Shown here piece by piece: positions 9,731 through 30,667 of a stretch of DNA of 32,000 nucleotides; positions within the stretch are counted from its first letter, which is position 1, and the number at the start of each line of letters is the position of its first letter. The notes beneath the pieces are model-generated. The model did not search any database and was not told the origin of the DNA. It was given only the letters and a program-made list of their open reading frames with translations. This stretch comes from Candidatus Scalinduaceae bacterium (lineage in GTDB: Bacteria > Planctomycetota > Brocadiia > Brocadiales > Scalinduaceae), in the NCBI GenBank assembly GCA_046759445.1, contig JBHICG010000025.1, positions 4,625 to 36,624 on the forward strand, in the 5' to 3' direction. The position numbers were made by a program, and so were the translations under genes.

Positions 9731-11107
9731 CTATTTCATATTCAGGTCCTTCATCTTTTGTTGTAAGCTCTGTCTATGCATGCCCAGTGTTTCCGCTGCC
9801 TTGCTTATATTACCATTATTCTCTTTTAGTTTCTTGCTTACAAAATCTCTTTCAAAAGCTTCAACGATCAACCTTTTCGCATCTCTGAAAGACATGTTAT
9901 AGTCAATATTCGAAAACGGGTTACAATATGTATTTGAGTTTCTAATTTCTTCTGAAAAATCATTGAGTCCTAAAGTTTCTGTATTGGTCATTACAATTGC
10001 ACCTTCAATCGCATTCTGCAATTCTCGCACATTCCCAGGCCAGTTATACTTTGTTAAAATTTTTGCTGCTTCATTTGATATCGGCATCATGTTTTTATTA
10101 TGTTTTATAGAAAAGAACTGTACAAATTTATTTACCAACATCAGGATATCTTCCTTTCGGTCTCTCAACGGTGGAAGTATAATTTCAACAACCTTCAATC
10201 TATAATACAGATCTTCTCTGAACCTATTCTCCTTTATTTCTTTAATCAATTCCTTATGAGTCGCACTTATTACTCTTACATCAACGTGAAGGGTTTCAGT
10301 CCCTCCTAATCGTTCAAAACTTTGTTCTTGCAGGACGCGTAAAACCTTTGATTGTGTATTTGGGCTCATATCCCCTATTTCATCAAGAAAGATAGTCCCT
10401 TTATTGGCCAATTCAAATTTTCCCAGACGTCTCTCTGTAGCGCCCGTAAAGGCACCCCTTTCATGACCAAACAACTCACTTTCGATTAATGTCTCTGGCA
10501 ATGCTGCACAATTCATTATTATCATAGGCATATGTCTTCGAGCACTTCTTTTATGGATTTCCTTAGCCACCAGTTCTTTTCCACTTCCACTTTCACCCTG
10601 AATCAACACTGTTACGTCAGTCTGCCCCACTTTCTCTATCTTATTAAACACATCTTTCATGATCTGGCTTTTGCCCACTATTTCTCCCATTGACTCTAAT
10701 CTGTCAATTTCTGAACGTAACCTTGCGTTTTCCTCCTCAAGGATAAGTTTTTCAAACGCATTGTTGGCAATCAACCTAAGCTCATCGATTTCAAATGGTT
10801 TGGCAATATAATCATAAGCGCCTTTCTTCATAGCATCTACAGCTATTCTTTCAGATCCATAAGCAGTTACCATAACAATCATAGGAGGCTTGCTCATACG
10901 ACTTATTTTTTCAAGTACATTAATCCCATTAACACGTGGCATATTAATATCAAGGAAGATTATAGCAGGGTTCTCTGCTTTTATCATCTCAAAAGCAGAA
11001 ATACTGTCGCCAGCTTCCTTGACAATGTAACCATCCTTTTCTAAGGCCATTTTCATTCCAAACCTTGCAGCCTTCTCATCATCCACTATTAAAACTAATT
11101 TTTTCAT
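9731..11107 (-). CDS. Sigma-54-dependent response regulator (NtrC family enhancer-binding protein)
   Basis: 458 aa. REC domain (LIVDDE, phospho-acceptor context IIFLDINMP). AAA+ sigma-54 activation domain with Walker A GESGSGKE, the GAFTGA loop, and ELFGHERGAFTGA. C-terminal Fis-type HTH (NISKAAETLGMHRQSLQQKMK). Confidence 0.9.
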   Translation of the reverse strand: MKKLVLIVDDEKAARFGMKMALEKDGYIVKEAGDSISAFEMIKAENPAIIFLDINMPRVNGINVLEKISRMSKPPMIVMVTAYGSERIAVDAMKKGAYDYIAKPFEIDELRLIANNAFEKLILEEENARLRSEIDRLESMGEIVGKSQIMKDVFNKIEKVGQTDVTVLIQGESGSGKELVAKEIHKRSARRHMPMIIMNCAALPETLIESELFGHERGAFTGATERRLGKFELANKGTIFLDEIGDMSPNTQSKVLRVLQEQSFERLGGTETLHVDVRVISATHKELIKEIKENRFREDLYYRLKVVEIILPPLRDRKEDILMLVNKFVQFFSIKHNKNMMPISNEAAKILTKYNWPGNVRELQNAIEGAIVMTNTETLGLNDFSEEIRNSNTYCNPFSNIDYNMSFRDAKRLIVEAFERDFVSKKLKENNGNISKAAETLGMHRQSLQQKMKDLNMK

Positions 11108-11119
11108 AGGATTACTCCT

Positions 11120-13237
11120 TTACATGTTACTTACTAAAAAACTCTCTGATGATGGAATATCAACTACAAACTTTGTAGCTGATTCCGTACTCTCCACCTG
11201 AATCATACCCCCCACTTCCTCAAGCTTCTTTTTTACAATCGCCAATCCCAGACCAGTTCCAGTTTGTTTGGTTGTATAGAATGGTTCAAATATTTTATTG
11301 ATATTTTCTTCGGAGATACCGAGCCCTGTATCTTTAAAAATTACCCTAATATAATCACCCTCCCGTTCATAGCTGACAGAAATTGTCAATCTTCCTCCTG
11401 TTAACATAGCTTGAATGGCATTATGAATAATATTGAAGAAGACTTCCTTCAATGACGCTTCATCTGTCATAATTACAGGTATACTATCTGAAACTTCTAA
11501 ATTTATAACAATATTATTCATTGTTGCTTCATGCTTTATAACAACAATTACTTTATTTATTACATCATCAATCTTAACATCGGTATTTTTATCACCCTGT
11601 GGTTTAGCAAACTCCAAAAGTTGGTTTACAACTTTTGTTAAACGATCTATTTCCTCAACAATTATTGAAAGGCTTTTCTTTGTTTTATAATTATCCTTAA
11701 AATCCTCACTCAAAACCTGAACAATAGCTTTAATTGAACTCAAAGGATTCTTAACCTCATGAGCGACACTAGTAGATAGCCTCCCCAGACTAGATAATTT
11801 TTCGTTTTCATAAATCCTCCTCTCTAACTGTAGCTTTTCATCAATGAGCTCAGCTTTGGCTATTGCAGAACTAATTTGATTTGCAATAATCATTAACTGT
11901 TCAAGGTTATCGGCTGGCAATCTTAAACCCCTTATAGATTTACCAAGAGACAGCAAGCCTATTAACTTTCTATCCTTAAAAACAGGAAATATAAAAAACG
12001 CCTCCAACTGTTTCATCTCATTTATTATGGCAACATCTGTGACTTCATGTCTGTCAAGCACCGTAATCTCACCTTTATCAAAATTTTTTATTATATTTAA
12101 GATATCGTCTCTTGCCATAAAAGCACCCTTTCTGTATCCAATAACTTGTATTCTGCCACCCTTAAAGAGCACCAAACTAACGTTTTTAATTGCCGTTGCC
12201 TTTTTTATCGACTCTACAACATACTCCAATAAAAGTGATAAGTTTATCAGTAAATCCGCACCAATCTGATGGCTCAAATCATTTAGAAGATATTCGCTGT
12301 CGGCGATCCTCCTAAAAAGTAATTTTCGCATTAAGCCCTGGACTTTTTCTTTCAATTTTGGAAACCAATAAACCAGTGCTATAACAAACACCGCTTCCGA
12401 CACCTTTACATTAACTGAATAATTAAGTTCAAGATATTTACTCAACTGCTTTATTCCAAAATAATAAAGACAAATAACTATCAATACCAAGAAAGAATAA
12501 AACATACTGCGCCTGAGAACAAATTCCATATAATTGTAACGATACACATAATAAGAGAATATAATACTTGGAAAGATTGAGGAAAGCATTGTAGCCAGGA
12601 TTAAGTAATCACCAATATAAGAAATAGCTCTTCCTTCAAAAAGGATCGTAAACGCAACAAGTAATGCAATGAAAATAAGAATCCAGAAAATAGAGAAGTG
12701 GAATTTCCGCTCTTCCACCTCTTCTACCTTGGCAGAAAGTATGCGTGAGATAACGGCAGACGTAAATATCGAAAATAGTAACCATACAACAAAAGGTTTA
12801 ACAAAAGGTGACACGCTCATTAGCATACGGGTTTCTTCCGAAAATATTTGCATTTCGGCTGATAACAAGAGCGGAATAATAGGAAGGTAGATTACGGTAA
12901 CCATGGACAATCTTACTATTTTTTTGATATTCCAGCCGCTCTCTAGAAGAAACAATATAGCCGTATGCATAAGTAAGCTAGGCATCAAACCCATTCCCGC
13001 ACTTGCAACTGCGTTTGATGATTGAGTGATTACATAAATATTTTTTCCAAAAAGCATTATACTAAAAAGTGAGACGGCATTACCATAATGCCACATTGCA
13101 ACACTTATTACGAGACATAAAAAGACTAATTCACTTCCCTTTTTATTCTTCCTTTGGACTATAAGAATTGAAAGTACTGTATGAAGGATGGAGCCCAGAA
13201 TGAAACCTATTAATGCTACTATTTCAATCAATGTCAT
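11120..13237 (-). CDS. Sensor histidine kinase with polytopic membrane N-domain and GAF-like domain
   Basis: 705 aa. About 300 aa of repeated hydrophobic helices, then a central GAF-like region. H-box SVAHEVKNPLSSI, N-box NIIHNAIQAM, G-boxes DTGLGI and GTGLGLAIV. There is a 12-nt gap to the downstream response regulator, so operon pairing is likely. Confidence 0.88.
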   Translation of the reverse strand: MTLIEIVALIGFILGSILHTVLSILIVQRKNKKGSELVFLCLVISVAMWHYGNAVSLFSIMLFGKNIYVITQSSNAVASAGMGLMPSLLMHTAILFLLESGWNIKKIVRLSMVTVIYLPIIPLLLSAEMQIFSEETRMLMSVSPFVKPFVVWLLFSIFTSAVISRILSAKVEEVEERKFHFSIFWILIFIALLVAFTILFEGRAISYIGDYLILATMLSSIFPSIIFSYYVYRYNYMEFVLRRSMFYSFLVLIVICLYYFGIKQLSKYLELNYSVNVKVSEAVFVIALVYWFPKLKEKVQGLMRKLLFRRIADSEYLLNDLSHQIGADLLINLSLLLEYVVESIKKATAIKNVSLVLFKGGRIQVIGYRKGAFMARDDILNIIKNFDKGEITVLDRHEVTDVAIINEMKQLEAFFIFPVFKDRKLIGLLSLGKSIRGLRLPADNLEQLMIIANQISSAIAKAELIDEKLQLERRIYENEKLSSLGRLSTSVAHEVKNPLSSIKAIVQVLSEDFKDNYKTKKSLSIIVEEIDRLTKVVNQLLEFAKPQGDKNTDVKIDDVINKVIVVIKHEATMNNIVINLEVSDSIPVIMTDEASLKEVFFNIIHNAIQAMLTGGRLTISVSYEREGDYIRVIFKDTGLGISEENINKIFEPFYTTKQTGTGLGLAIVKKKLEEVGGMIQVESTESATKFVVDIPSSESFLVSNM

Positions 13238-13546
13238 AGCCTAAGAAATATGCGTCAATTTAGAAAATATTTGAAAAGTTTTTATTAAAATGTTTCACAG
13301 GTTATTGTGCTTCCGATACGTTGATTTAATAGTTGGATGGATTCTGAAAAAACAAATCAAGTGAAAATGTTTTATGCATTATGAAATAAAATTTATATTA
13401 TTATTAACCAAATTATCTGTCAATAAAAAAAGGCATTCAGCTATATAAAATAATAAATCAAGGTGTTAAGATACCTTGAAAACGATAATGAAATACATTC
13501 AGCACAGGATTCAGGATGACAATTATAGTGTTCCCGCAACATACTA

Positions 13547-14569
13547 CTAAAGATATAGATAATCATTTACTTTACAAGTATGGCAAATTGTTTCTGTTTT
13601 GTTTTTACGACCCAGAACTTCCTTACGTGCTGAAATGTATTTTTCATTATTCCATATTTCCTTAAATGAATTCTCCTTAATATTACCAAAAGAGTGAGCT
13701 TCGCTATATACAGAACAACATGGCAAAATAGAGCCATCCCAATTTATAACTGTCTCAGTCCATAATTGATTACAATTAAATTTATTTTTTGGTTTCTTTT
13801 CAGTCATGTTAAATATGTTATACTCTGGAATAAGAGGTAACCATTTATAATCACGTTCAATTGATTTTTCAGCAGTTTCAAAAATTTCTTTGCCCATATC
13901 GGTACGCATCTTGTTTATGACTAACTTTATGCCTATTTCCTTTGCCAAGGCTCTAGCCTTTTCAATCTCATGTTCATTATGTCTGAAGACATGAAACAAC
14001 CATATTATCTCAGTATAACGATTTTTTAACTTTTTCTTTTTTTCAATTAAAAGTTTCATATTTGATATAACTCTATTAAAGTCTCCATCAATATGATAAG
14101 TTGAATAAGTTGAATTACTGGCGCCATCGCAAGAAATATATATTTTTTGTAAATTAGCTATAATTAAGGCTTCAGCTAGAGAATCCTCAATGGGTAAACT
14201 CAGATTTGTGCTTATTTTTACGGCTATTTTTTTTTCGTTAGCATACTCTACCATTTTTATAATTTCTTTGTTTATAAGAGGTTCTCCCCAATTATACAAC
14301 CTTACCAAGATTAGATTTTTACCTATTTCGTCAATAAATTGTTTAAAATCAGAAAAGGATAGGAATCCTTTTCTGGCAGAATCATCTCTTTGCCCTGTAG
14401 GACAAAGTGGACAACGAAGGTTACATATATTACCTGAATCTATAGTAATCTTGGCAGGATAGTAATAAAGGCGCACGGAACCTATTGCATACTGAATTCT
14501 ACTCATCAAAAGATTATATAATTTTCTTATACTAAAAACGCTTATGCGCCTCCACAACTTATGAGACAT
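13547..14569 (-). CDS. Radical SAM enzyme with C-terminal SPASM/twitch-like auxiliary cluster motif
   Basis: 340 aa. Canonical CxxxCxxC (CNLRCPLCPTG) near the N-terminus. The C-terminus has CNQLWTETVINWDGSILPC (C-x12-G-x4-C) followed by a terminal CHTC. Transcribed divergently from the ACP operon. Confidence 0.8.
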   Translation of the reverse strand: MSHKLWRRISVFSIRKLYNLLMSRIQYAIGSVRLYYYPAKITIDSGNICNLRCPLCPTGQRDDSARKGFLSFSDFKQFIDEIGKNLILVRLYNWGEPLINKEIIKMVEYANEKKIAVKISTNLSLPIEDSLAEALIIANLQKIYISCDGASNSTYSTYHIDGDFNRVISNMKLLIEKKKKLKNRYTEIIWLFHVFRHNEHEIEKARALAKEIGIKLVINKMRTDMGKEIFETAEKSIERDYKWLPLIPEYNIFNMTEKKPKNKFNCNQLWTETVINWDGSILPCCSVYSEAHSFGNIKENSFKEIWNNEKYISARKEVLGRKNKTETICHTCKVNDYLYL

Positions 14570-14865
14570 CTTTTAATAAGGAAATGTAAAACATCACAAA
14601 TAAAAAGGATAATTTAAGAAAGCCATGAAGTTTTTTTGACTAATATCAAACGCGGAAAATAAACTATGTAATCCTCCTGAAAATACTTGCCTGACGGCAG
14701 ACAGGGAGGAAAAACACACCTTATCTTGCGGGGAACCAGTTTTTATACAATTTTAATAATTCGTGGTGACCCGAGAGGTATGAATGTTACACAAAAAAGT
14801 GCTTTCATGGCCTATAGGAACGATATCAAAAAGCATATTCCAAGTCAACTCGATTAATCTCAAAA

Positions 14866-14912
14866 ATTGACATAAGATTGTTATTGACATCTCTTTGTAA
14901 GTTTGTTAAGTT
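14866..14912 (+). promoter_or_regulatory. Candidate sigma-70-type promoter or operator upstream of the ACP operon (two ATTGACAT direct repeats)
   Basis: ATTGACAT occurs at 14866-14873 and 14883-14890, each containing the TTGACA -35 consensus. A weak -10-like TAAGTT lies 17 nt after the second box (14907-14912). No experimental support; the -10 is poor. Confidence 0.2.
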
Positions 14913-15094
14913 CCCGCATCCATCTTTTTTCTGAAATGTGTAGCATATTTAATTCACTTAATTACACAAACATATCTTAATATATAATAGTGGTTTAAAA
15001 CCCGAACTAAGTCAAAATAAAGTAAATTATTTGATTTCACTAAAAAGTTTGTTGTCTTAAACTTTTGTAGGTTTGTTTTTTGGGAGGTATTATA

Positions 15095-15346
15095 TTGGAT
15101 ATATCAAAAGAAGTCACTTCAATTGTTGCTGAAGTTACTGAGTTAGACGAAAAAGAAATATGGGAAAAAAGAGACGCCGATTTTTTTAAGGAATTAGAAA
15201 TAGATTCTTTGTTGGCATTAGAAATACTGGCGCTCATTGAAAAAAAATTCAAAATCCAAATACCAGAAGAAAAACTAGTCGACATTACCTCATTAAATGC
15301 AACAATTGAAATGACAAAATCAACGTTGGAAGAAAATGCAAAATAG
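15095..15346 (+). CDS. Acyl carrier protein (dedicated, cluster-associated)
   Basis: The track ORF starts at TTG 15080. I prefer TTG 15095 because GGGAGG at 15082-15087 sits 7 nt upstream. The phosphopantetheine attachment motif EIDSLLALE (DSL serine) lies in a four-helix-sized protein of about 83 aa. The start codon choice is uncertain. Confidence 0.85.
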   Translation: MDISKEVTSIVAEVTELDEKEIWEKRDADFFKELEIDSLLALEILALIEKKFKIQIPEEKLVDITSLNATIEMTKSTLEENAK

Positions 15347-15430
15347 CCATATATACTTTTTGCCTCCGCACCTCTTTCATGAATTTTAAAACAGTCCGTT
15401 TATGACCTTAAACAAGAAAGGTTTTTATAA

Positions 15431-15880
15431 ATGTCGAGTTTTGAGGAAATAAAGAAACTGATTCCTCAAAAAAATCCATTCTTATTTATTGATAAAGTTA
15501 TTGATTTCCAAAAAGAAAGGAAGATTGTTTGTCTAAAAAATGTCTCTGGTAATGAACCATTCTTCGTTGGGCACTTTCCAGATTTTGCCATAATGCCAGG
15601 AGTCCTAATCTTAGAAGCCCTGGCACAAGCCTCAATCTTACTCTTCAAAAAAAGTTTTAATACCGACAAGGATAAAGATAAGGTCTTTTTATTAGGCTCT
15701 GCTGACATCCGTTTTACAAAACCTGTTTTTCCAGGCGACCAACTTATTTTAGAAATAGAGGCTGAAAAAATAATCTCTAGAGCCGCAATAATAAAGGGTA
15801 TAGCCAGAGTAGGAGAAAAGGTAGTTTCAAAAGCTACATTAAGTTTTGGTATTGCAGAAAAAGAATCTCTAAATGATTAA
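15431..15880 (+). CDS. fabZ: 3-hydroxyacyl-ACP dehydratase FabZ-like
   Basis: 149 aa hotdog-fold protein with the FabZ signature FFVGHFPDFAIMPGVLILEALAQ (catalytic His and Glu context). Confidence 0.9.
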   Translation: MSSFEEIKKLIPQKNPFLFIDKVIDFQKERKIVCLKNVSGNEPFFVGHFPDFAIMPGVLILEALAQASILLFKKSFNTDKDKDKVFLLGSADIRFTKPVFPGDQLILEIEAEKIISRAAIIKGIARVGEKVVSKATLSFGIAEKESLND

Positions 15881-15898
15881 TTCAGCTTAATAGCCAAT

Positions 15899-17131
15899 AT
15901 GCAAGAAAATCTGAATAAAAGAATCGTAATCACTGGTCTGGGAGTAATATCCCCTATTGGTTGTCAAAAGGACACTTTCTGGAATGCTTTAATCAAGGGC
16001 GCATCCGGAGTATCAGAAGTCAAGGCGTTTGACACAACTGAATTTAAGGTACATAGAGGTTGTGAAGTTAAGGACTTCAAATATGAAGACTATGCAAGTA
16101 ATGGTTCAAATCGAAAAATTGGCAAGGGATCACAGTTTGCTATTGCTGCAACCAAACTTGCACTGGAGGATTCTAAGATAGACATAGTTAATGTAGATCC
16201 GGAAACAGTAGGAGTTTCAATTGGAACTACTGCAGGTGAGATTCAAATCCTAGAAAAAGTAAATCATTTAAGATGCGAAAACGGAGATGATCATGTAGAC
16301 TCTGACCTATTCCTTAAGCATCCATGCAACAATATCCCTTCTAACATATCTATTGAATTTGGCTTTAAGGGCCCAAGCACGATAATTCCTACTGCATGTG
16401 CTGCGGGAAACTATGCTATTGGTTATGCATGCGACCTAATAAAATTGGGAAGAGCAGATGTAATGTTGGCCGGTGGTACCGATCCATTTTCCAAAGTAGC
16501 TTATGTTGGTTTTGGTAGACTCAATGCTATAGCACCGGAAATTTGTCAGCCTTTTGACAAAAACAGAAAAGGTATGTTAATCGGTGAAGGTGCTGGAATG
16601 CTGGTATTAGAATCTTTGGAAGATGCATTGGCCAGGAATGCAAATATCTATGCAGAAATCCTAGGCTATGGCCTAAGCTGTGATGGATATCATATCACAA
16701 TTCCACAACCAGAGGGAAATGGTGTCGTATCAGCGATGAGAAAGGCATTAAAAGATGCCAAAATCAAGCCTGAGGACGTTCAACATATAAGCGCACATGG
16801 CACTGGAACTGTCGCTAATGACAAGGCCGAAACAATATCTATTAAGAAAGTCTTTGGTGAACATTCAAAGCGTCTGGCTGTAATTTCTATAAAATCAATG
16901 ATAGGGCATACTATGGGAGCTGCAAGTGCTATAGAAGCCATTGCATGTGCATTAGCTATTAAAGAAGATCTAGTGCCTCCCACGATAAACTATGAAACTG
17001 AAGACCCGGAGTGTGATTTAGATTTTGTTCCCAATGTAAAACGGGAAATGCGAGTCGATATAGCCTTAAACAATGCTTATGCCTTTGGTGGCAACAACAG
17101 CTGTCTTGTATTAAAGAAGTATACCGGTTAA
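15899..17131 (+). CDS. Beta-ketoacyl-ACP synthase II-like (FabF-like, catalytically intact)
   Basis: 410 aa. Active-site Cys in PTACAAG (Cys167, codon 16397-16399). First His in DGYHITIP, second His in ISAHGTGT, and [13 protein letters not shown]-terminal [14 protein letters not shown]. Confidence 0.9.
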
Positions 17132-17160
17132 GAGAGTATAATATAATTATCTTAATTAAT

Positions 17161-17199
17161 GTTAATGGTATCTTAAAATATATGCCATTAACTTTTTTA
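17161..17199 (+). terminator. AT-rich hairpin plus T-run between the two ketosynthase genes (possible attenuator or weak intrinsic terminator)
   Basis: GTTAATGG (17161-17168) pairs with CCATTAAC (17185-17192) and is followed by TTTTTT (17193-17198). The stem is AT-rich, so stability is modest. Confidence 0.3.
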
Positions 17200-17235
17200 T
17201 TTCTAGGGAAATAATTTTGTAAGAAATAAACAACA

Positions 17236-18471
17236 ATGAATAATCGTTTGGTTATAACGGGAATTAGCATTTTATCTCCAATTGGTCTAAATAAAGATGA
17301 ATTTTGGAACAATTTGATAAACGGTGTCTCTGGGATAAAGGATATTACATTATTTGATGTCTCCAAATACAGAAGCAAGAAGGCGGGTGAAATATCAGAT
17401 TTTAATGCCAAGACATTTTTGGGTAAGAAAGGTATCCGCCATATAGACAGGACTTCGCTATTAGTTTCCTCAGCCGCAAAACTCGTAATGGAAGATGCAA
17501 ATATTACTCACGAATCCTATACTGAGGATGACTTAGGAATTGTAATAGGTTCTACATACGGCAGTATAGATAGCATTAGTTCGTTTGACCTGGAAGCTTT
17601 AAAAGAAGGACCGAATTACGTTAATCCAATGGACTTCCCAAATACGGTTCTAAATGCTCCCGCAAGCAGAGCCTCTATTTTTTGTAAAGCCACTGGCCTC
17701 AACTCTACAATTTCGACAGGTGTTACCAGTGGACTTGACGCCATTATTTATGCTTCTGATTTCCTAAAGTTAGGCAGGGTAAAGGCCGTTTTAACTGGAG
17801 GTGTTCACGGTTTGACTCATGACATTTTTTGGGGTGCATATAGGTCAGGAGTATTATCAGGCAGCAAAGATAACACGGTCGAGATTTCTGCACCATTTGA
17901 CAAAAGGCGTAATGGACTTGTAATTGGTGAAGCTGCTGCATTGCTTATGATAGAAAGACTTGAAGATGCATTAAAAAGAAATGCAAAAATTTACGCTGAA
18001 ATCAAAGGTTATGGAAGCGTCTTTAACCCAAAAAAGATTCATCATGACAGTTTCGATACTGAAGAAGGTGTAAGATGCATTTCTCTGGCAATGAAAGATG
18101 CAGAACTTAATATTGACGATATTTCTTGTATATCAGCTTGTGCAAATTCCAGCAGAACTGGTGATATAATGGAAACAAAAGTTATTAAAGATTACTTTGG
18201 CAATTATGCCGATAAAGTTCCTATAAGTGCAATTAAATCTATGACAGGAGAATGCCTTGATGCATCAGGAGCAGTACAGTGCGTTGCAAGTATAATGGCA
18301 ATCAACAACGGCGTCGTTCCCCCGACAACAAATTACCAGGAAAAAGACGATGAATGCAATTTAGATTATGTATCTAATAAAAACAGAGAATTAGATGTAA
18401 AAAACGTCCTCGTGAACGCTTTTTCTGACACAGGTAACATCTCATCCATAATCATCTCAAGATATTCATAA
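17236..18471 (+). CDS. Ketosynthase paralog lacking the catalytic Cys (chain-length-factor-like / KS-beta-like)
   Basis: 411 aa, alignable along its length to the upstream KS. The active-site Cys position reads STGVTSG (Val163, codon 17722-17724). The AHGT His position reads SACANSS (Cys302). The GH of KSMxGH reads KSMTGEC (Glu339). Confidence 0.85.
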   Translation: MNNRLVITGISILSPIGLNKDEFWNNLINGVSGIKDITLFDVSKYRSKKAGEISDFNAKTFLGKKGIRHIDRTSLLVSSAAKLVMEDANITHESYTEDDLGIVIGSTYGSIDSISSFDLEALKEGPNYVNPMDFPNTVLNAPASRASIFCKATGLNSTISTGVTSGLDAIIYASDFLKLGRVKAVLTGGVHGLTHDIFWGAYRSGVLSGSKDNTVEISAPFDKRRNGLVIGEAAALLMIERLEDALKRNAKIYAEIKGYGSVFNPKKIHHDSFDTEEGVRCISLAMKDAELNIDDISCISACANSSRTGDIMETKVIKDYFGNYADKVPISAIKSMTGECLDASGAVQCVASIMAINNGVVPPTTNYQEKDDECNLDYVSNKNRELDVKNVLVNAFSDTGNISSIIISRYS

Positions 18472-18477
18472 CCTACA

Positions 18478-19932
18478 ATGGCTATCTCCTTAAATGATTT
18501 CCCCTCAAACAAATCCCAAATAAAATCGAAATACGACGTAATCATATTAGGTGCTGGTATTGGCGGATTAATCTGCGGAGCTTTCTTAGCAAAAAGTGAA
18601 AAAAAAGTGCTCATTATCGAACAACACAGTATACCCGGAGGTTATTGCACTTCTTTCAAAAGAAAGGGTTTTATTTTTGATGCAGCAGTCCATCACATCG
18701 GTGGATGCGGAAAATGGAGTATAGTTGGTAGAAGTCTTAAGGAATTGGATATAAACATTAATTTTTTAAGACTTGACCCTATGGACAGTATAAATTTTCC
18801 TTCTTTTTCTATAGATATTCCTGCCGAACTTGACGATTACATAAATTTGCTAAAACAAAATTTCCCATCCGAAAGTGAAAATTTGTCATCCTTTTTTAAA
18901 GAATTTGTCGGGCTTTATAGATCTACAGTTAGAATTGAAGGAAGCAAATTGCTAACTAAATACAAAGACACCACTTACAAAGAAATGTTAGATAAGTTTT
19001 TTGCTGACGAGAAACTCAAAATGACCCTATCTGCACAGTGGGGTTACATAGGCTCAAAACCTCATGAGGTATCGGCTATTGGAATGTGCCAAATGCTGGT
19101 GAATTACTTAAAAGATGGAGCTTTCTACCCTATGGGAAGTACTCAAAAATTCGCAGACGCAATAGCTCAAAAATTTATTGACTATGGTGGTCAAATTATG
19201 TTATCCTCTTTGGTAAACAAGATATACACAAAAGATGCACTTGCAAAAGGAGTTATAACAGATAAAGGGAAAGAGTTTTTTACTGATATTCTTGTCTCTA
19301 ATATCGACCCAAAACAAACATTTTTCAAATTAATAGAAGAAAAGGAAGTTAATAATTCCTATCTTCACAAGATCCAGTCAATGAAAGAAAGTATTTCATT
19401 TTTTTTATTATATCTGGGTCTTGATGGAGACATTGACTTAAAATCACTAAAAAGAGGTTTCTACCATACATCTGATGATATAAATTTTTCCAATGGATGG
19501 TTTTATATATCCATTCCTACAGAAATTGATCCAAATCTTGCCCCTGACAAAAAACAAATAATTACTATCGTTGCATCATTAAAAAGCAAATATGATGATA
19601 TAAAAGATTGGGCTGCCTTTAAAGAGAAAATGAAGAAACATACAATAAATTATTTAGAAAATTTTATTCCTAATATCCAAAACCATATTGAGGTAATCGA
19701 AACCGCAACACCAAAGACGCTTAATCGTTACACACTTAACTCAAAAGGCGCAGCTTATGGTTGGGCTGTTACCGTTGACCAAACATGGTCTAAAAGGCTC
19801 CAGCACACAACACCCCTCAAGAATATTTTTCTGGCAGGGCATTGGACAAACCCAGGACCAGGGATATGTGCGGTTGTATCTTCCGGTTGGAAGGTTGCTA
19901 ATCTGATTTTAAGTAGGAGGATAAAAAAATGA
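18478..19932 (+). CDS. FAD-dependent oxidoreductase, phytoene desaturase (CrtI/CrtD)-like
   Basis: 484 aa. N-terminal Rossmann dinucleotide motif YDVIILGAGIGGLICGAFLAKSEKKVLIIEQHSIPGGY. C-terminal FLAGHWTNPGPGI, typical of the CrtI/amine-oxidase superfamily. Starts 6 nt after the upstream stop. Confidence 0.8.
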   Translation: MAISLNDFPSNKSQIKSKYDVIILGAGIGGLICGAFLAKSEKKVLIIEQHSIPGGYCTSFKRKGFIFDAAVHHIGGCGKWSIVGRSLKELDININFLRLDPMDSINFPSFSIDIPAELDDYINLLKQNFPSESENLSSFFKEFVGLYRSTVRIEGSKLLTKYKDTTYKEMLDKFFADEKLKMTLSAQWGYIGSKPHEVSAIGMCQMLVNYLKDGAFYPMGSTQKFADAIAQKFIDYGGQIMLSSLVNKIYTKDALAKGVITDKGKEFFTDILVSNIDPKQTFFKLIEEKEVNNSYLHKIQSMKESISFFLLYLGLDGDIDLKSLKRGFYHTSDDINFSNGWFYISIPTEIDPNLAPDKKQIITIVASLKSKYDDIKDWAAFKEKMKKHTINYLENFIPNIQNHIEVIETATPKTLNRYTLNSKGAAYGWAVTVDQTWSKRLQHTTPLKNIFLAGHWTNPGPGICAVVSSGWKVANLILSRRIKK

Positions 19933-21395
19933 GGAAAATGATGCTCATAAATCCACACCCCCCAGGACGACATGGTGAGGAAAGTATAACCGTCATTGTA
20001 CAAATGCCACTTAATCTGGCTTATATTGCTGCCCTTACGCCGGGAGATTGGGAGTTTGACGTAATCGATGAGAATATAGAAAATGCTATTGATGAAAATG
20101 GTGAAATAACCTTTGAACCTGTTGATTTGGTATGTATTACTTCCGTTACCTATCAAGTAGCAAGCGCCTATAAGATAGCTGAAGCATGTAGAAGAAAAGG
20201 TATGACCGTAATCCTTGGTGGAATACATGCCTCCGTAATGCCTGATGAAGCATCTAAATATGTTGATGCCGTGTTTACGGGAGAAGCAGAAGCACTCTGG
20301 CCACAGGTAATAAAAGACTTTGAAAATGGTCAACTCAAAAAGGTTTATAATGGCGGTCTGCCAGCCTTGTCAGAAATGAAGCATGTTTTTCCCAACAGAG
20401 AACTCATGAAAAAGAAATATAACTATAAGTTTTCCTCTATCGTTACAACAAAGGGTTGTCCAAATTACTGTGATTTTTGCAGTGTACCAACCTTCCAGGG
20501 AAAAAAATTCAGGGAAAGGCCGTATGAAGATGTTCTCGATGAGATGGAGGCAACTGATTACAAGGGATTAATGTTTGCTGAAGATAATTTCTACGGCCAT
20601 AGTAAAAACTCCGCTAATAGAGCAAAGGCACTCTGGCGCGGAATGATTGAAAGAGGTATCGAAAAAGACTGGCTTGGATTTACGGCACTAAATATATCAC
20701 AGGATTCAGAGGCACTAGACCTTATGGCCAAGAGTGGAAATTTTGGATTTCTCTGCGGAATAGAATCAACAAATGAGGTTGTCTTAAAGAAGATGAATAA
20801 AAGGGTAAATCTAAGGCTTGGCACAGATAGTTATTTTGACTGCATTCAAAAGATTCACGATCACGGTCTTATCGTCTGGGGATCTATAGTCTTAGGAGCA
20901 GATGGAGACGATAAGGATTCTTTTAAAAGGATGACAGAATTTGTATTGGAAAACAACATTGACGTTCTTACTTTTGGTATCAATTGTCCATTTCCACAAA
21001 CTGAACTTTATCATAGATTAGATTCAGAAAAGAGGCTTTTCCGTAAGAATTATCCTGAAGACTGGAAATATTACGATACCGCACATGTAGTTCACAGATT
21101 TGTTGACATGACGTTAGAAAATTTTATTGATGGTATGCAATATATGTATGACCATCTTTATGCCGGTGACAACCTGAGAAAACGCTTTAGAAAATCAGCT
21201 AAAACAATTGGTAGTACAAGACATGGCAAACGCAATGCTATGTTTGCCTTCCGTGTCGGCTCTGACTGGCAACAGGTCTTTGAACAGGTACTGGAAAATC
21301 TACATAAACTATACGATTCTGGAGACTATTATCAAGACTGGTATAAAAGCAGCACAGTATCAACTCATGTAGAAAATGGTGTTACCGTAAGTTAA
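19929..21395 (+). CDS. B12-binding-domain radical SAM enzyme
   Basis: 488 aa. N-terminal cobalamin-binding-like Rossmann segment (DLVCITSVTYQVASAYKIAEACRRKGMTVILGGIHAS), then the radical SAM cluster motif KGCPNYCDFCSV. Its ATG overlaps the upstream stop (ATGA at 19929-19932). Confidence 0.85.
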   Translation: MRKMMLINPHPPGRHGEESITVIVQMPLNLAYIAALTPGDWEFDVIDENIENAIDENGEITFEPVDLVCITSVTYQVASAYKIAEACRRKGMTVILGGIHASVMPDEASKYVDAVFTGEAEALWPQVIKDFENGQLKKVYNGGLPALSEMKHVFPNRELMKKKYNYKFSSIVTTKGCPNYCDFCSVPTFQGKKFRERPYEDVLDEMEATDYKGLMFAEDNFYGHSKNSANRAKALWRGMIERGIEKDWLGFTALNISQDSEALDLMAKSGNFGFLCGIESTNEVVLKKMNKRVNLRLGTDSYFDCIQKIHDHGLIVWGSIVLGADGDDKDSFKRMTEFVLENNIDVLTFGINCPFPQTELYHRLDSEKRLFRKNYPEDWKYYDTAHVVHRFVDMTLENFIDGMQYMYDHLYAGDNLRKRFRKSAKTIGSTRHGKRNAMFAFRVGSDWQQVFEQVLENLHKLYDSGDYYQDWYKSSTVSTHVENGVTVS

Positions 21396-21756
21396 ACACT
21401 CTTATACCTTCATTAGAATAAAAATGATGCTATATTTGGTCATTCGTCAATAAATACTTTTTATTTTAGTCAAACCAATCTCTCCTAAATCCTCAAACAA
21501 AAACCATATAGACAGAAAGCACATAATACTAACCGTAAAATAATTGTGTTTTTGTTTTCATCTTGCAATCACGTATATGTATACTACATACCTTTTGTTA
21601 AGCGGTAGTTTAATGGCTTGATATTATATTTTCTCTTGCTTTGGTGATTGCATCTTTGTTAGATTAATAACTTTATGGAAACGCTTATTAAAACCATAAC
21701 TAATTGTATATTAAATGAAACTTATTATATAACCTTAAACAAATTTAGGAGGAAAA

Positions 21757-22290
21757 ATGGACAGTCTTAAAAATCGTATTATTAGGGCGGCAAAGCTGGA
21801 TGCTCACCTTTATGAAGAAGTAGAGGCAGACAAGAGTGCAATGAGTCAAGCCATGTTGGTTGTTGTTCTATCAGGTGTTGCAGCAGGTCTGGGAACTCTA
21901 GTAAAAGGGGGATTTTTAGGGATTTTACTTGGAACAATAACGGCCCTTGTTGGATGGTACATATGGGCGCTTCTTACCTTCTTGATTGGTACGAAGCTCT
22001 TGCCAGAACCTCAAACTAAGTCTGACATTGGTGAGTTGTTGAGAACTATTGGTTTCTCAAGCGCACCGGGATTGATTAGGGTATTTGGTGTTATTCCAGG
22101 AATAGAAGAGCTAGTCTTTTTTGTTGCTGCAATTTGGATGCTGGCAGCAATGGTAGTCGCAGTAAGGCAAGCCCTCGATTACACATCAACATTACGCGCT
22201 GTAGGCGTATGTGTGATTGGCTGGATTATTCAAATTTTAATTTTCATTTCATTATTTTATATTCTGGGCGGGTCACCAGGAACAACTTAA
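21757..22290 (+). CDS. Yip1-domain-like integral membrane protein
   Basis: 177 aa. An amphipathic N-terminus (LDAHLYEEVEADKSAMSQA) is followed by about 5 hydrophobic helices. A strong AGGAGG sits 5 nt upstream of the ATG. The family call is from recalled sequence pattern only. Confidence 0.5.
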   Translation: MDSLKNRIIRAAKLDAHLYEEVEADKSAMSQAMLVVVLSGVAAGLGTLVKGGFLGILLGTITALVGWYIWALLTFLIGTKLLPEPQTKSDIGELLRTIGFSSAPGLIRVFGVIPGIEELVFFVAAIWMLAAMVVAVRQALDYTSTLRAVGVCVIGWIIQILIFISLFYILGGSPGTT

Positions 22291-22395
22291 TGCCACTTTT
22301 CCTAAAAATATTTAATGAGTCAACTATAGCAAATGTGTTGTTATTGTAAAAACATTTGCATGGGCGACAATGCCCGCAAACCTACCACCTTAAAA

Positions 22396-23169
22396 ATGGC
22401 ATATAACAATTTAAAAGCAGTAGCTATCATACCTGCAAGATATGCATCAACCAGGCTACCCGGTAAGCTTATTAAATACGAAGCCAAAAAATACACGGGA
22501 AAATTTCTCATAGAGCATGTGTATGAAAAGGTAAGAGAGGCAAAAAACATTCAGGAAGTCATTATTGCAACAGATGATAAACGTATTTCCGAGGCAGTAT
22601 ACCAATTTGGTGGACATGTTAAAATGACGTCTGTTAATCATAAATCAGGTACTGATAGAATCGCTGAGGTAGCATCTAATTTAGATGCAGACTTTATAGT
22701 AAACATTCAGGGAGATGAGCCAGACGTTAGAGGAGACATGATAGATGCACTGATTAGGGCAATGTACGCTGAAAAAGAAGCAACCGTTTGCACACTGGCA
22801 AACGAAATAAGGTCTAAAGATGAACTCATCGATCCAAACATCGTAAAAGTTGTTCTAGACAAAGATGGTTATGCTATGTATTTTTCCAGAGCCTCTATAC
22901 CGTATATCAGGGATGGAAACAACAGCCCTAAATTTTCATCATTCCACTTCTTGAGGCACCTCGGTATATATATATACCGTAAAGATTTCTTGCTAGGGTT
23001 CTCAAACCTTCCTGTACCAGCGATAGAAGAGGCAGAAAAATTGGAACAACTCAGGGTTCTTTCAAATGGATACAAAATCAAGGTTGTTATCACACCTTAC
23101 ACATGTGAAGGCGTAGATACACCTGATGATTTTGAGAAATTCTTGGACAAATATCGGATTAAAACTTAG
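22396..23169 (+). CDS. kdsB: 3-deoxy-manno-octulosonate cytidylyltransferase (CMP-KDO synthetase)
   Basis: AVAIIPARYASTRLPGKL and IVNIQGDEP are hallmark KdsB motifs. The track ORF begins at 22333, but its first 21 residues (MCCYCKNICMGDNARKPTTLK) look non-homologous. ATG 22396 gives the usual length of about 257 aa. Confidence 0.88.
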   Translation: MAYNNLKAVAIIPARYASTRLPGKLIKYEAKKYTGKFLIEHVYEKVREAKNIQEVIIATDDKRISEAVYQFGGHVKMTSVNHKSGTDRIAEVASNLDADFIVNIQGDEPDVRGDMIDALIRAMYAEKEATVCTLANEIRSKDELIDPNIVKVVLDKDGYAMYFSRASIPYIRDGNNSPKFSSFHFLRHLGIYIYRKDFLLGFSNLPVPAIEEAEKLEQLRVLSNGYKIKVVITPYTCEGVDTPDDFEKFLDKYRIKT

Positions 23170-25962: not shown

Positions 25963-27507
25963 ATGAGTTATCCACTATTTGTTAAGAGAGATATAGATGG
26001 TTTTTTTGGTCTTGCCATCGATAATCTTATCCAATTAATACTCATTGTGAGTTTTTGCAAGACGCTTTGCGGTATGCCTGACGAACTTGTCTTCGGTGTA
26101 ATACTTCCCGGATCAGCTATTTCAATACTCCTGGGAAACCTTTTCTACTCATGGCAGGCAAGAAAGCTCGCAATCAAAACAAAAAGAAATGACGTAACAG
26201 CATTACCATACGGCATAAACACTGTTAGTCTTTTTGCCTTCATCTTCTTTATAATGCTTCCCGTTTATGAGGATACAAAAGACCCATACCTGGCATGGAA
26301 GATTGGAATGATTGCCTGTTTCCTTAGCGGAGTGATAGAGATGTTGGGGGCGTTGATTGGGGAAAGCCTGAGGCGGATTACTCCAAGGGCTGCCTTGCTG
26401 TCCACACTTGCGGGAATTGCAATTACATTTATTTCTATGGATTTTGCATTTAAGATATTTGAAAAACCCATAATAGCCCTGTTCCCGCTTGCGTTTATCC
26501 TTGTCCAGTATTTTTCAAAAGTAAGATTTCCATTGGGACTACCAGGAGGCCTAATTGCCATTGTCGTTGGCACAGGATTGGCCTGGCTGCTGGGTTATAT
26601 GGATGGTGGAAGCACTGTGACTGAAAATGGAGTCTTTCATTTTTCTCCACCGCACTTTAGCGGGGCAAGTATGATAGACATAATCCAGAGCAAATATATG
26701 CTTCAATATATATCTATCATTATTCCCATGGGAGTGTTCAATGTTGTGGGCTCTCTGCAAAATATTGAGAGTGCCGAGGCGGCAGGAGATAAGTATAACA
26801 CATTTTCATCACTATTAACTAATGGAATAGGTTCAGTTGTAGCATCAATATTTGGCAGTTGCTTCCCCACAACCATATATATAGGCCATCCCGGCTGGAA
26901 GGCAATAGGCGCCAGGGGCGGATATTCAATCCTGAACGGAATCTTTATAACAACCATATGTTTGACTGGATTTATAACCGTTATCCTCAAGGTTGTGCCA
27001 CTTGAAGCGGGAATAGGGATTTTATTATGGATAGGGATCGTAATAGTTGCACAGGCATTCCAGGAAACACCTAAACATCATGCTCCTGCCGTCGCCGTGG
27101 GTCTCTTCCCCGCAATTGCGGCATGGGGGTTGCTGATGGTTGAAAGTACTCTCAGGTCATCCGGGACTACCCTCTTTATCCTTGGCAAGGATGCATTTGC
27201 CAACAATCTGGCCATTCATGGAATGATATCACTCGAAAGAGGATTTATATTCACGTCCATGATACTAGCATCAATTTCAGTCTTTCTGATTGAAAAGAAA
27301 TTCCTGAGAGCATGTGCCTGGTCGCTTGGAGCAGCTCTGCTCTCTTACATAGGCGTTATCCATGCATACGCGCTCACACCTAATGGCGTGGTTAGTGTAT
27401 TTGGATTTGGGATGGCAAACGATTTCTCGATAGGTTATTGCTCCTTTGCCATACTATTCATTGCCATGTATTTTTATACACGTGGGAATGAGAAGATGTG
27501 TCCCTAA
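25963..27507 (+). CDS. Polytopic permease (possibly NCS2 / xanthine-uracil-vitamin C permease superfamily)
   Basis: 514 aa, about 12-14 hydrophobic helices throughout, noticeably more GC-rich than flanking DNA. The N-terminal DGFFGLAIDNLIQL pattern recalls a permease family annotated that way. The substrate is unknown. Confidence 0.45.
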   Translation: MSYPLFVKRDIDGFFGLAIDNLIQLILIVSFCKTLCGMPDELVFGVILPGSAISILLGNLFYSWQARKLAIKTKRNDVTALPYGINTVSLFAFIFFIMLPVYEDTKDPYLAWKIGMIACFLSGVIEMLGALIGESLRRITPRAALLSTLAGIAITFISMDFAFKIFEKPIIALFPLAFILVQYFSKVRFPLGLPGGLIAIVVGTGLAWLLGYMDGGSTVTENGVFHFSPPHFSGASMIDIIQSKYMLQYISIIIPMGVFNVVGSLQNIESAEAAGDKYNTFSSLLTNGIGSVVASIFGSCFPTTIYIGHPGWKAIGARGGYSILNGIFITTICLTGFITVILKVVPLEAGIGILLWIGIVIVAQAFQETPKHHAPAVAVGLFPAIAAWGLLMVESTLRSSGTTLFILGKDAFANNLAIHGMISLERGFIFTSMILASISVFLIEKKFLRACAWSLGAALLSYIGVIHAYALTPNGVVSVFGFGMANDFSIGYCSFAILFIAMYFYTRGNEKMCP

Positions 27508-27788: not shown

Positions 27789-28469
27789 ATGGTAAGGGCA
27801 TGCGATATTATTAATAAAAAATATAATAAACTAGAAAGTAAATACGGCTCCACACGCTCAACACTCTTTGGGAGATTTTACGAGAAGATAATATCCAAAT
27901 GGTTAGAAGAAAGAGAAAAGTATACTCTAGAACGATGGCCAAATAATAAAGTAGTGCGTAAGCCACGGATTTATTGGAACAATATCTTCTTAGACAATTT
28001 TAACTTTAGTAAAGATTGGTTTGTAAGAGATGAAGTTGAGGAATCTCTGAATTTTTTGAAGAACAAAAAAAGTCATTGCACACTCGACGGTACTTTTAAG
28101 AAAAATGACAAGTTCTACATATGGGAAGCAAAAAATTGGCCTTTGTATCCAGAAAAAGGACCAAAACATCAAATAAGGAAATATCTTACTAACAATCCTT
28201 GGATATTTGACAAGAAGTTTGACATTGGCGGTAAAAATTACGAAATATCAGGATTTTTATTTTCTTTCTGGAATATGGAACTAAAGGATAAAACAGAAAT
28301 CGAAGAAGGAGTAAACCAAATTATAGGAGAAAATAAATTTAAAATTATTCTAACTCAAGCGATATTAGATGATTGTTTAGGTAAACAATATGACTGGTAT
28401 CGTGAAATAATAAAGGAAGAGAAAGCAAATATTGATGATTTTTTTGATCAGCTTCTTAGTAGAAAATAG
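27789..28469 (+). CDS. PD-(D/E)xK nuclease-fold protein (restriction-endonuclease-like), uncharacterised
   Basis: 226 aa. An N-terminal helix with conserved acidic residues (FYEKIISKWLEE) is followed by HCTLD(100)G and FYIWE(113)AK(115)NW, giving the D...ExK signature in strand-like contexts. No closer family was recognised. Confidence 0.5.
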   Translation: MVRACDIINKKYNKLESKYGSTRSTLFGRFYEKIISKWLEEREKYTLERWPNNKVVRKPRIYWNNIFLDNFNFSKDWFVRDEVEESLNFLKNKKSHCTLDGTFKKNDKFYIWEAKNWPLYPEKGPKHQIRKYLTNNPWIFDKKFDIGGKNYEISGFLFSFWNMELKDKTEIEEGVNQIIGENKFKIILTQAILDDCLGKQYDWYREIIKEEKANIDDFFDQLLSRK

Positions 28470-28520: not shown

Positions 28521-29393
28521 ATGAATAGTGTCAAATGGTTACAGTTTTTTGAGCGAATTAGCTGTTTTTACAGGCAAATGCTAATGCTCCCATTATGGAG
28601 TAAATATCCACATCATGTCACAGACGGATGGGACTCTTTAGCTATATTTTTAGAGGGCTATGCTTTTGAAAGACAAGGAAGACGACCGGATTATTCTCAT
28701 GTAGCGATAGATGCTTTGATTGATTGCAAAAAGCAAAATAATGGTAACCTGACTACAGGCATAGTTAATTATGTTTGGCAGAGCTTTAAGGATAAACTTA
28801 GTAATAAAAGTTTAAATTATCAAAATAATCCTCTGTGTCCAAGAGGAAAGGAATATTCAAAACGTTACAAACAATCTATAAAGCATTGTCACACTCAACA
28901 ACCTTCCTTAATAGAGATGTTCTTGGAAAAAATTATGCCACAGGAATTAACCTTAACATCATATTTTCAAAATCGAATTATAGAAGATAATGAATCTCGA
29001 CCTTCATACGATTTATTGAAATCTGTTCAAGGAATAGGGAAAAAGGTTTCCTCTTTTTATCTTAGAGACTTAACAGATATGATGGATAGCATCACTCTTG
29101 AAAAGTTAAAAGATAGGCAACTGTTACAACCAATAGATATTTGGGTTGAAAGAACAGTGAAAATTTTAGCTGAAAGTAAGAATATGAAAGAAGATGAAAT
29201 AGCCAAATGGATAGTCGATAATTCAATACCACATATAAATCCTGAACGGGTTAATATGGGGATTTGGTTTTTCTGTTCTTCAATAGCAGGTAGTGAGTAT
29301 AGACTTAATAACGCTTTAATCAGTTTGAATAATGCTCAAACCTTAGTAAATCTTTTTATGAATAGAATTAAAAATGTGTGTAAAGATTGCTAA
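28521..29393 (+). CDS. HhH-GPD superfamily DNA glycosylase-like protein (Ogg/AGOG-like), uncharacterised
   Basis: 290 aa. LKSVQGIGKKVSSFYLRDL (residues 166-184) resembles the helix-hairpin-helix of Ogg/EndoIII enzymes (GxGxK...FLRN). Lys175 sits at the position of the catalytic Lys in bifunctional glycosylases. A downstream QPID(206)IWVERT resembles the catalytic-Asp segment (VDxHV). The HhH-to-Asp spacing is longer than in EndoIII. Confidence 0.45.
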   Translation: MNSVKWLQFFERISCFYRQMLMLPLWSKYPHHVTDGWDSLAIFLEGYAFERQGRRPDYSHVAIDALIDCKKQNNGNLTTGIVNYVWQSFKDKLSNKSLNYQNNPLCPRGKEYSKRYKQSIKHCHTQQPSLIEMFLEKIMPQELTLTSYFQNRIIEDNESRPSYDLLKSVQGIGKKVSSFYLRDLTDMMDSITLEKLKDRQLLQPIDIWVERTVKILAESKNMKEDEIAKWIVDNSIPHINPERVNMGIWFFCSSIAGSEYRLNNALISLNNAQTLVNLFMNRIKNVCKDC

Positions 29394-29936: not shown

Positions 29937-30266
29937 ATGAAACTTTCTATAAAAGAAAGAGCGATAGTTGAAGAATTCAGACAAATAATAAACGACAAAT
30001 TCCCTGATGAAATTATAGATGTATTGGTATTTGGCTCTAAAGCAAGGGGAGACGCAACGAAAGAATCAGATATTGATGTTTTAGTAATTACGTCATCAAA
30101 TAATTGGAAAAAAGGTGATGAAATTAGAGAGATCGGTTATGGACTAGACGATGAAATAGATTATAAATTATCAATTCAAGTTATTTCAAAATCACACCTT
30201 GATTATCTAAGGCAAAATAATTTTCAGTTTGTTGCAAATATAGAAAATGAAGGTATTATTGTATGA
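29937..30266 (+). CDS. Nucleotidyltransferase-domain antitoxin (MNT)
   Basis: 109 aa with the minimal nucleotidyltransferase signature VFGSKARGDATKESDIDVLV (GSxxRG...DxD). Overlaps the downstream HEPN gene by 4 nt. Confidence 0.85.
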   Translation: MKLSIKERAIVEEFRQIINDKFPDEIIDVLVFGSKARGDATKESDIDVLVITSSNNWKKGDEIREIGYGLDDEIDYKLSIQVISKSHLDYLRQNNFQFVANIENEGIIV

Positions 30267-30667
30267 AACATATCTATGAGGAAGAGATAAGACTAGAGAT
30301 AGAGAGAAGTAAAAAAGCATTGGATGCCGCTAAAAAGCTTTTTGAAGAAGAACTGTTTGAAGACGCAATTTCTCGTTCTTATTATGCGGTTTTACATGCA
30401 GCAAAGGCGGCTTTGCTTGGAGATCACATAATAGTTGATTCACATGAAGCAGTGAAAAGGCTCTTTGGTATGCATTTGGTCAAGACAGGAAAAGTTGATG
30501 CTAAATTCTCTAAGATTCTTCGAGAAGAGCAAGATGAACGTTTTTTGGCTGATTATGATGTATCATTTTCACCTGAAAAAGAACGCGTAGAAAAGAGAAT
30601 TAAAGACGCAGTGTGTTTTTTTGATGCAATGAGTTCATACCTTAAACAAAAGGATATTGATTTTTAA
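30263..30667 (+). CDS. HEPN-domain toxin
   Basis: 134 aa all-helical protein with the HEPN-family pattern (AISRSYYAVLHAAKAALL, RLFGMH as an Rx4H-like element, EEQDERFLADYD). ATGA overlap with the MNT gene at 30263-30266. Confidence 0.8.
   Translation: MKHIYEEEIRLEIERSKKALDAAKKLFEEELFEDAISRSYYAVLHAAKAALLGDHIIVDSHEAVKRLFGMHLVKTGKVDAKFSKILREEQDERFLADYDVSFSPEKERVEKRIKDAVCFFDAMSSYLKQKDIDF

Follow-up and report, generated by a model that had tools for sequence, protein, structure and literature searches.

The open reading frame (ORF) at positions 17236-18471 of a 32,000-nucleotide stretch of DNA from a Candidatus Scalinduaceae bacterium (GCA_046759445.1, contig JBHICG010000025.1, positions 4,625 to 36,624 of the forward strand; the whole stretch is called the window below) encodes a catalytically dead ketosynthase (KS) that is very probably the non-catalytic half of an amxFabF2/amxFabFmut heterodimer, in which the acyl tunnel of the active partner is completed and narrowed by the dead subunit's residues F134, T137 and V138. 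The dead subunit would itself carry out neither condensation nor decarboxylation. Paired with the product of the gene immediately upstream (15899-17131), in a heterodimer like that of a KS and a chain-length factor (CLF), it would supply a helix-loop-helix (F134, T137, V138) that helps to wall the acyl tunnel running to the lone active site on amxFabF2. By completing that site it would bias the enzyme toward short (approximately C6-C8) acyl chains carried on the acyl carrier protein (ACP) of the cluster, amxACP, which agrees with the short-chain preference of amxFabZ. Both genes lie in Cluster I of the anammox bacteria, a putative gene cluster for ladderane lipids. How these chemically extraordinary lipids are made is unsolved, and a dead partner that helps to set which acyl chain Cluster I builds is relevant to that problem. 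The feature is real and was correctly interpreted from the sequence, and it is also already known: the substitutions were described in 2009 and the CLF-like heterodimer in 2026.

The substitutions, orthology, synteny, tunnel-residue conservation, purifying selection and co-phylogeny given below are all results of the present sequence analysis. The ORF matches the two Pfam domains of ketoacyl synthases (PF00109, 2.6e-36; PF02801, 5.5e-23) and is 36% identical to the upstream KS at 15899-17131 by BLASTP. Active-site positions were assigned by BLASTP to this adjacent KS, by HMMER to Bacillus subtilis FabF (PDB ID: 4LS6) and by MAFFT with Escherichia coli FabF (the sequence aligned is identical at 413/413 positions to PDB 6OKG_A). 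The three independent alignments give the same triad and the same position assignments, and these are listed here with the ORF itself.

17236-18471, + strand: amxFabFmut orthologue (Kuste3606-type non-canonical FabF), the dead KS-fold partner subunit, 411 aa
17635-17649, + strand: F134-P-N-T137-V138, residues of the helix-loop-helix; the tunnel-lining equivalents in the Brocadia fulgida structure are Phe135/Thr138/Val139
17722-17724, + strand: Val163 (codon GTT), at the position of the nucleophilic Cys (E. coli FabF Cys163/164; ATACTSG / PTACAAG); the window motif is STGVTSG
18139-18141, + strand: Cys302 (codon TGT), aligned with the first catalytic His (AHGT)
18250-18252, + strand: Glu339 (codon GAA), aligned with the second catalytic His (KSMxGH)
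18427-18429, + strand: Asp398 (codon GAC), aligned with the gating Phe of GFGG (E. coli FabF Phe400)

By alignment, then, the ORF is confirmed as a full-length FabF-type KS in which the entire Cys-His-His triad and the gating Phe are substituted. The first-pass annotation, made by eye, had proposed the changes of Cys to Val163, of His to Cys302 and of GH to GE (Glu339), and the comparison with the two FabFs bears out each of them. Its numbering of the two histidines was reversed, however: it had labelled AHGT as the second catalytic His, but AHGT holds the first and KSMxGH the second, so that all three triad residues are replaced. Its suggestion that the first His may be retained within KIHHD (267-271) does not stand either, because this stretch lies opposite the non-catalytic region DAYHMTS of FabF and is variable among the aligned anammox orthologues, with 15 different residues at position 269 among 120 of them. 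In the alignment with E. coli FabF, Lys334 of the KSM motif is preserved. An AlphaFold2 model of the protein has a mean predicted local distance difference test (pLDDT) score of 95.1, and its top fold match is B. subtilis FabF, with a template modelling (TM) score of 0.94.

Searches of the PDB place the protein directly with the anammox pair. The best match is chain C of 9S5H, the amxFabFmut of B. fulgida (E-value 1.5e-183, covering residues 3-410), and the protein is 89% identical to one from Ca. Scalindua rubra, 79-89% identical to named Scalindua proteins and 66-70% identical to the Brocadia-type orthologues. The gene stands within a run of six between 15080 and 21395, in the order ACP-FabZ-F2-MUT-PDH-B12rSAM, the other five members being as follows.

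15080-15346, + strand: amxACP orthologue with the DSL phosphopantetheine motif (PDB 7QV0_D 5e-39, 9S5I_E 2e-35); start codon uncertain (TTG ORF)
15431-15880, + strand: amxFabZ orthologue, a 3-hydroxyacyl-ACP dehydratase variant (PDB 8AYI 9e-73, also 7QV0_A)
15899-17131, + strand: amxFabF2 orthologue (Kuste3605-type), the intact KS and active partner, 410 aa (PDB 9S5H chain B 3.8e-208)
18478-19932, + strand: CrtI/phytoene-desaturase-family flavoprotein (Kuste3607-type 'PDH'), in synteny at every anammox locus with fetched DNA reaching this far
19929-21395, + strand: B12-binding radical S-adenosylmethionine (SAM) protein (Kuste3608-type), overlapping the PDH stop by 4 nt

From its content and order this block is the Scalindua version of anammox 'Cluster I', whose Kuenenia genes are kuste3603-3608. 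Every fetched anammox locus has this gene order as far as its contig reaches (L003-L058, L069), and more than 55 anammox genomes carry the dead-KS ORF undamaged and at full length, with its synteny fixed. The live partner in the window has Cys167/His300/His337 and the gate Phe396 all present, and the B12 radical SAM protein is 70-92% identical among anammox loci. The conserved block does not extend to three neighbours in the window, a radical SAM/SPASM gene (13547-14569), the ORF at 21757-22290 and kdsB, for which tblastn found no hits in the other fetched loci.

Residue statistics were taken over the 120 closest homologues of the window protein. Position 163 is Thr in 59, Val in 52, Ile in 6 and Glu in 3 of these, position 302 is Cys in 98 and Asn in 22, and position 339 is Glu in all except one, which has Asp (119 and 1). 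The tunnel residues F134, T137 and V138 show no variation, either in this set or in any anammox or non-anammox locus. Considered by genome, Scalindua has VCE or TCE as its triad, Brocadia, Jettenia and Kuenenia have VNE, and a deep group of Brocadiales has END. Since Val, Ile and Thr are all beta-branched (Val and Thr being isosteric), the constraint at position 163 appears to be steric and not chemical, and the near-invariant Glu339 may have a structural role, perhaps pairing with the retained Lys334 and stabilising the dead pocket.

Codons at the Val, Cys and Glu positions turn over synonymously, with Glu339 encoded by either GAA or GAG. Measured against three Scalindua genomes, the dead gene has a dN/dS of 0.06-0.09 and the live one a dN/dS of 0.06-0.07, and purifying selection of this strength means that the dead KS is no decaying copy. 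In a neighbour-joining tree (Kimura distance, 100 bootstraps) the degenerate partners form one clade (100%) and the F2-type KSs another (61%), with mirrored internal topology, which is consistent with a long co-evolution of the pair.

The anammox orthologues have been described in some depth. Rattray et al. 2009 (PMC2649909) gave Kuste3606 as Val163/Asn298/Glu333/Arg392 in their Table 2 and judged normal FabF chemistry impossible for it, and Javidpour et al. 2016 termed the Kuste3606-type protein a 'non-canonical FabF'. The names amxFabF2 and amxFabFmut are those of Granatino et al. (May 2026 preprint, 10.64898/2026.05.19.726425), who report that the two Kuenenia stuttgartiensis proteins co-purify and that both are needed for decarboxylation of malonyl-amxACP and formation of acetoacetyl-ACP, each being inactive alone. 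Their crystal structure of the B. fulgida heterodimer (PDB ID: 9S5H/9S5I) has a single catalytic tunnel, partly lined by Phe135, Thr138 and Val139 of amxFabFmut, and with the V139G and F135G/V139G variants the preference between cross-linking probes of C6, C8 and C16 is altered. In the same study amxACP docks at the entrance of amxFabF2, where it touches both subunits, and the authors reported both FabF homologues of the cluster to be expressed. Across species it found the Cys of amxFabFmut changed to Val in most and to Thr in S. brodae, and His changed to Asn, Cys or Glu (10.64898/2026.05.19.726425).

The window protein is an orthologue of these amxFabFmut proteins (Kuste3606 / Broful02170 / Scabro02228), in a six-gene order identical to theirs and with a triad of their class (V or T / C or N / E), and it shares the tunnel residues F-x-x-T-V and the loss of the gating Phe. 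The differences are only those between species: it has Val at the nucleophile position where S. brodae has Thr, Cys302 where Brocadia and Kuenenia have Asn, and, at position 398, Asp in place of the Arg of Brocadia, Jettenia and Kuenenia. The heterodimer, the activity of the complex only and the effect on chain length all come from the literature on orthologues, and we infer that they transfer to the Scalindua pair in the window. For a heterodimer of the window proteins themselves the support is indirect, coming from the adjacency of the genes, the mirrored phylogeny and the equal selective constraint.

A CLF-like heterodimer partner that shapes the tunnel and chain length was what the first-pass annotation had proposed, and this has been demonstrated for the orthologues (10.64898/2026.05.19.726425). 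It had also called the subunit probably purely structural, with no part in priming, and here a refinement is needed: the orthologous subunit takes no part in the chemistry yet cannot be dispensed with, since neither protein is active alone, and the complex as a whole does perform decarboxylative priming. A reading made from sequence alone had thus reached the right answer, with its bookkeeping of the triad now corrected.

Several points weigh against this interpretation. Its experimental support comes from orthologues only. When S. brodae amxFabFmut is expressed alone it crystallises as a homodimer (10.64898/2026.05.19.726425), so heterodimerisation is a preference seen in co-expression only. 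In vitro the orthologous complex makes acetoacetyl-ACP only and C6 is not elongated, and the link between Cluster I and ladderanes remains circumstantial (10.64898/2026.05.19.726425). Additionally, the net charges of the helix-loop-helix and of the partner helix in the window proteins are -4 vs -4 and 0 vs +1, a crude and uninformative count that does not reproduce the electrostatic asymmetry by which the preprint explains why homodimers are avoided, and which was derived there from 3-D surfaces.

The likeness to the CLFs (KS-beta) of type II polyketide synthases (PKSs), such as the actinorhodin CLF (PDB ID: 1TQY, chain B) and Iga12 of ishigamide (PDB ID: 6KXD), lies in the KS-fold paralogue without a catalytic Cys beside an intact KS, and in the orthologues, which form an obligate heterodimer, contribute to the acyl tunnel and influence chain length. 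The CLFs of actinobacterial aromatic PKSs have Gln at the Cys position, whereas the window protein has Val163 and the family as a whole V, T, I, E or F, with Gln never conserved. Unlike the CLFs, the protein is closest to FabFs both by sequence (B. subtilis FabF, 275 bits) and by fold (TM 0.94). No chain labelled as a CLF is found among the 60 PDB sequence hits listed for it or the 50 fold hits, and the KS-alpha chains 1TQY_A and 6KXD_A lie below the FabFs in the PDB ranking. It also differs from them in belonging to a separate clade of degenerate FabF-like proteins, supported at 100%, and in its fatty-acid-like context with FabZ and a dedicated ACP. Judged by these comparisons the dead KS is outside the actinobacterial CLF clade. 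For the comparison with the actinorhodin CLF, Iga12 and the aryl-polyene type we relied on Figure 1e of 10.64898/2026.05.19.726425.

With the canonical homodimeric FabF (KAS II, for beta-ketoacyl-ACP synthase II; TIGR03150) the dead KS shares its fold, its length, 31-38% identity, Lys334 and most of the glycine-rich structural motifs, but the triad and the gating Phe are replaced and homodimeric enzyme activity is not expected. Its profile scores fall below the cut-offs of both TIGR03150 (345.1 vs 493.75) and PRK07314 (334.6 vs 387), the second of which the neighbouring amxFabF2 passes (450 vs 387).

Rattray et al. 2009 (PMC2649909) are the source of the idea that the dead KS is an enzyme with new chemistry, which would recruit an externally made ladderane or other non-malonyl unit into the fatty-acid pathway by way of replacement residues such as Cys302 and Glu339. 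The replacement residues are indeed conserved (E339 in 119/120 and C302 in 98/120 homologues), and the B. fulgida structure has a second tunnel, which runs to the replaced triad and can hold polyethylene glycol (PEG; 10.64898/2026.05.19.726425). However, in place of Cys302 Brocadia, Jettenia and Kuenenia have Asn and the wider family has Ser, Gly or Ala, and position 163 tolerates 16 residues across representatives of that family. The isolated orthologue, moreover, had no detectable activity and was not cross-linked to alpha-bromoacyl-ACP probes, and the predicted docking of ACP avoids the entrance of the dead tunnel (10.64898/2026.05.19.726425). We consider such recruitment highly improbable, and Cys302 as a new nucleophile was rejected given the Asn, Ser, Gly or Ala at this position in relatives.

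In addition to its part in the partner's tunnel, the dead subunit might have in its own tunnel a functional holding site, from which an intermediate, acyl or polyene, would be presented to the downstream enzymes (desaturase-like or radical SAM) without any chemistry of its own. That the tunnel is well defined and occupied by PEG in the crystal (10.64898/2026.05.19.726425), that purifying selection over the whole protein equals that on the active partner, and that the dead pocket keeps Lys334 and Glu339 with hardly any variation would all fit, but the fold and the large dimer interface account equally for a constraint on the whole protein, and electrostatic docking shows no preference of ACP for that entrance (10.64898/2026.05.19.726425). 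We regard a holding site as highly improbable. The loss of every catalytic residue could also be read as the mark of a decaying duplicate, a functionless relic of an enzyme. Yet the ORF is intact and full length across the anammox genomes in fixed synteny, dN/dS is low and the tunnel motif invariant, the FabFs of the cluster are reported to be expressed, and the orthologous partner KS is inactive without the dead subunit (10.64898/2026.05.19.726425). A pseudogene was rejected on dN/dS and conservation, and is effectively refuted.

Similar pairs occur outside the anammox bacteria. A scan of a genome collection found homologues of the dead KS at 46-50% identity in many Omnitrophota metagenome-assembled genomes (MAGs) and one single-amplified genome, and further ones in some Planctomycetia, one Thermodesulfovibrionales MAG and one Actinomycetota MAG (loci L059-L082; for instance L067 7998-13318, L081 3379-10040 and L070 6033-9215). 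Here too the triad is degenerate, in most cases with F at the first place, N, S, G, C or T at the second and E or D at the third, and F..TV is retained. Most of these dead KSs lie near an ACP and a FabZ, several with a CrtI-like gene, and most of the loci with enough flanking sequence carry an intact Cys-His-His (CHH) KS that is 52-59% identical to amxFabF2. A homologue of the B12 radical SAM protein was undetected by tblastn in the fetched flanks of the non-anammox loci, bar one weak hit.

A library of representative sequences from 1.84 billion proteins gives a similar picture. Among its best 150 hits, to which the following figures refer, 82 are degenerate single-domain proteins, 18 are intact and 40 are fusions of approximately 800 aa. 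In 38/40 of the fused proteins an intact CHH KS is followed by a degenerate KS, the degenerate domain having the F..TV motif, and by sequence they look like covalently joined KS-CLF-like pairs. The second-His position is Glu in 71/82 of the single-domain degenerate proteins, and the old Cys position holds the 16 different residues already mentioned. As antiSMASH has been published to call 'ladderane-like' clusters in non-anammox phyla including Omnitrophota, and as synteny with Desulfotalea was noted by Rattray et al. 2009 (PMC2649909), these pairs are an extension of what was known and not a discovery.

One possible reading, which we hold only tentatively and think on balance doubtful, is that the dead/live KS pair is an old co-evolving module (ACP, FabZ, KS, dead KS and CrtI-like desaturase) and not a ladderane invention, to which the anammox bacteria added the B12 radical SAM protein; its other holders are Omnitrophota, other Planctomycetota, Thermodesulfovibrionales and an Actinomycetota MAG. 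If so, the heterodimer would make a generic short or unsaturated acyl precursor, and comparing clusters that have the radical SAM gene with those that lack it would single out the step that forms the cyclobutanes. A bolder version would have the dead subunit's own tunnel, with Lys334 and Glu339, hold the intermediate for the tailoring enzymes. Dead/live pairs outside anammox without a neighbouring B12 radical SAM gene offer a comparative handle on the genes specific to ladderanes, and these cassettes are the sole lead here that deserves follow-up.

Some smaller observations concern the loci themselves. In the Omnitrophota locus L067 a histidine kinase and a response regulator (13309-16099) follow the cassette, and in the window a sigma-54-dependent response regulator and a histidine kinase (9731-13237, - strand) lie upstream of Cluster I on the opposite strand; the presence of two-component genes beside both may be coincidence. 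A contig labelled Thermodesulfobacteriota (CAXMPV010000082.1, L010) carries a complete Scalindua-type Cluster I with proteins 75-86% identical to those of the window, and is probably a mis-binned Scalindua contig and not a true Thermodesulfobacteriota cluster. The spacer between the live and dead KS genes in the window (17132-17235) is 104 nt long and strongly AT-rich, with no obvious Shine-Dalgarno sequence seen in it before the ATG of the dead KS, and at other Scalindua loci approximately 10 to 160 nt lie between the tblastn match to one gene and that to the other. A scan of 14400-22400 for promoters and terminators gave counts no higher than the shuffled expectation, and supports no claim on operon structure. 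The ACP of the window is a divergent one.

The database proteins nearest to the dead KS are those of Ca. Scalindua, and together with a G+C content of 36% they mark the window as DNA of a marine anammox bacterium from the Scalindua group. Scans of the window for tRNAs and Rfam families found nothing. Its other features are listed below.

4756-5964, - strand: ORF of 401 aa with a nucleoside-diphosphate-kinase domain, matched in two separate stretches
13547-14569, - strand: divergent radical SAM/SPASM protein just upstream of the cluster; the best NCBIfam match, well below cut-off, is a tungsten-cofactor oxidoreductase maturase
21757-22290, 25963-27507, 27789-28469 and 28521-29393, + strand: four ORFs of 177-514 aa, the first lying between the radical SAM gene and kdsB
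29937-30667, + strand: two small ORFs that overlap, coding for a minimal nucleotidyltransferase (PF01909, MntA-like) and for a protein with a HEPN domain

The radical SAM/SPASM gene is probably outside Cluster I, given the lack of tblastn hits near the cluster in the other fetched loci noted above. The four ORFs at 21757-22290, 25963-27507, 27789-28469 and 28521-29393 have no Pfam or NCBIfam match, permissive thresholds included. Nucleoside-diphosphate-kinase domains are usually about 135-150 aa in size, and the length of the 4756-5964 product suggests a kinase of this family with a large extension or insertion. From its domains, the pair at 29937-30667 is a typical MNT/HEPN toxin-antitoxin module.

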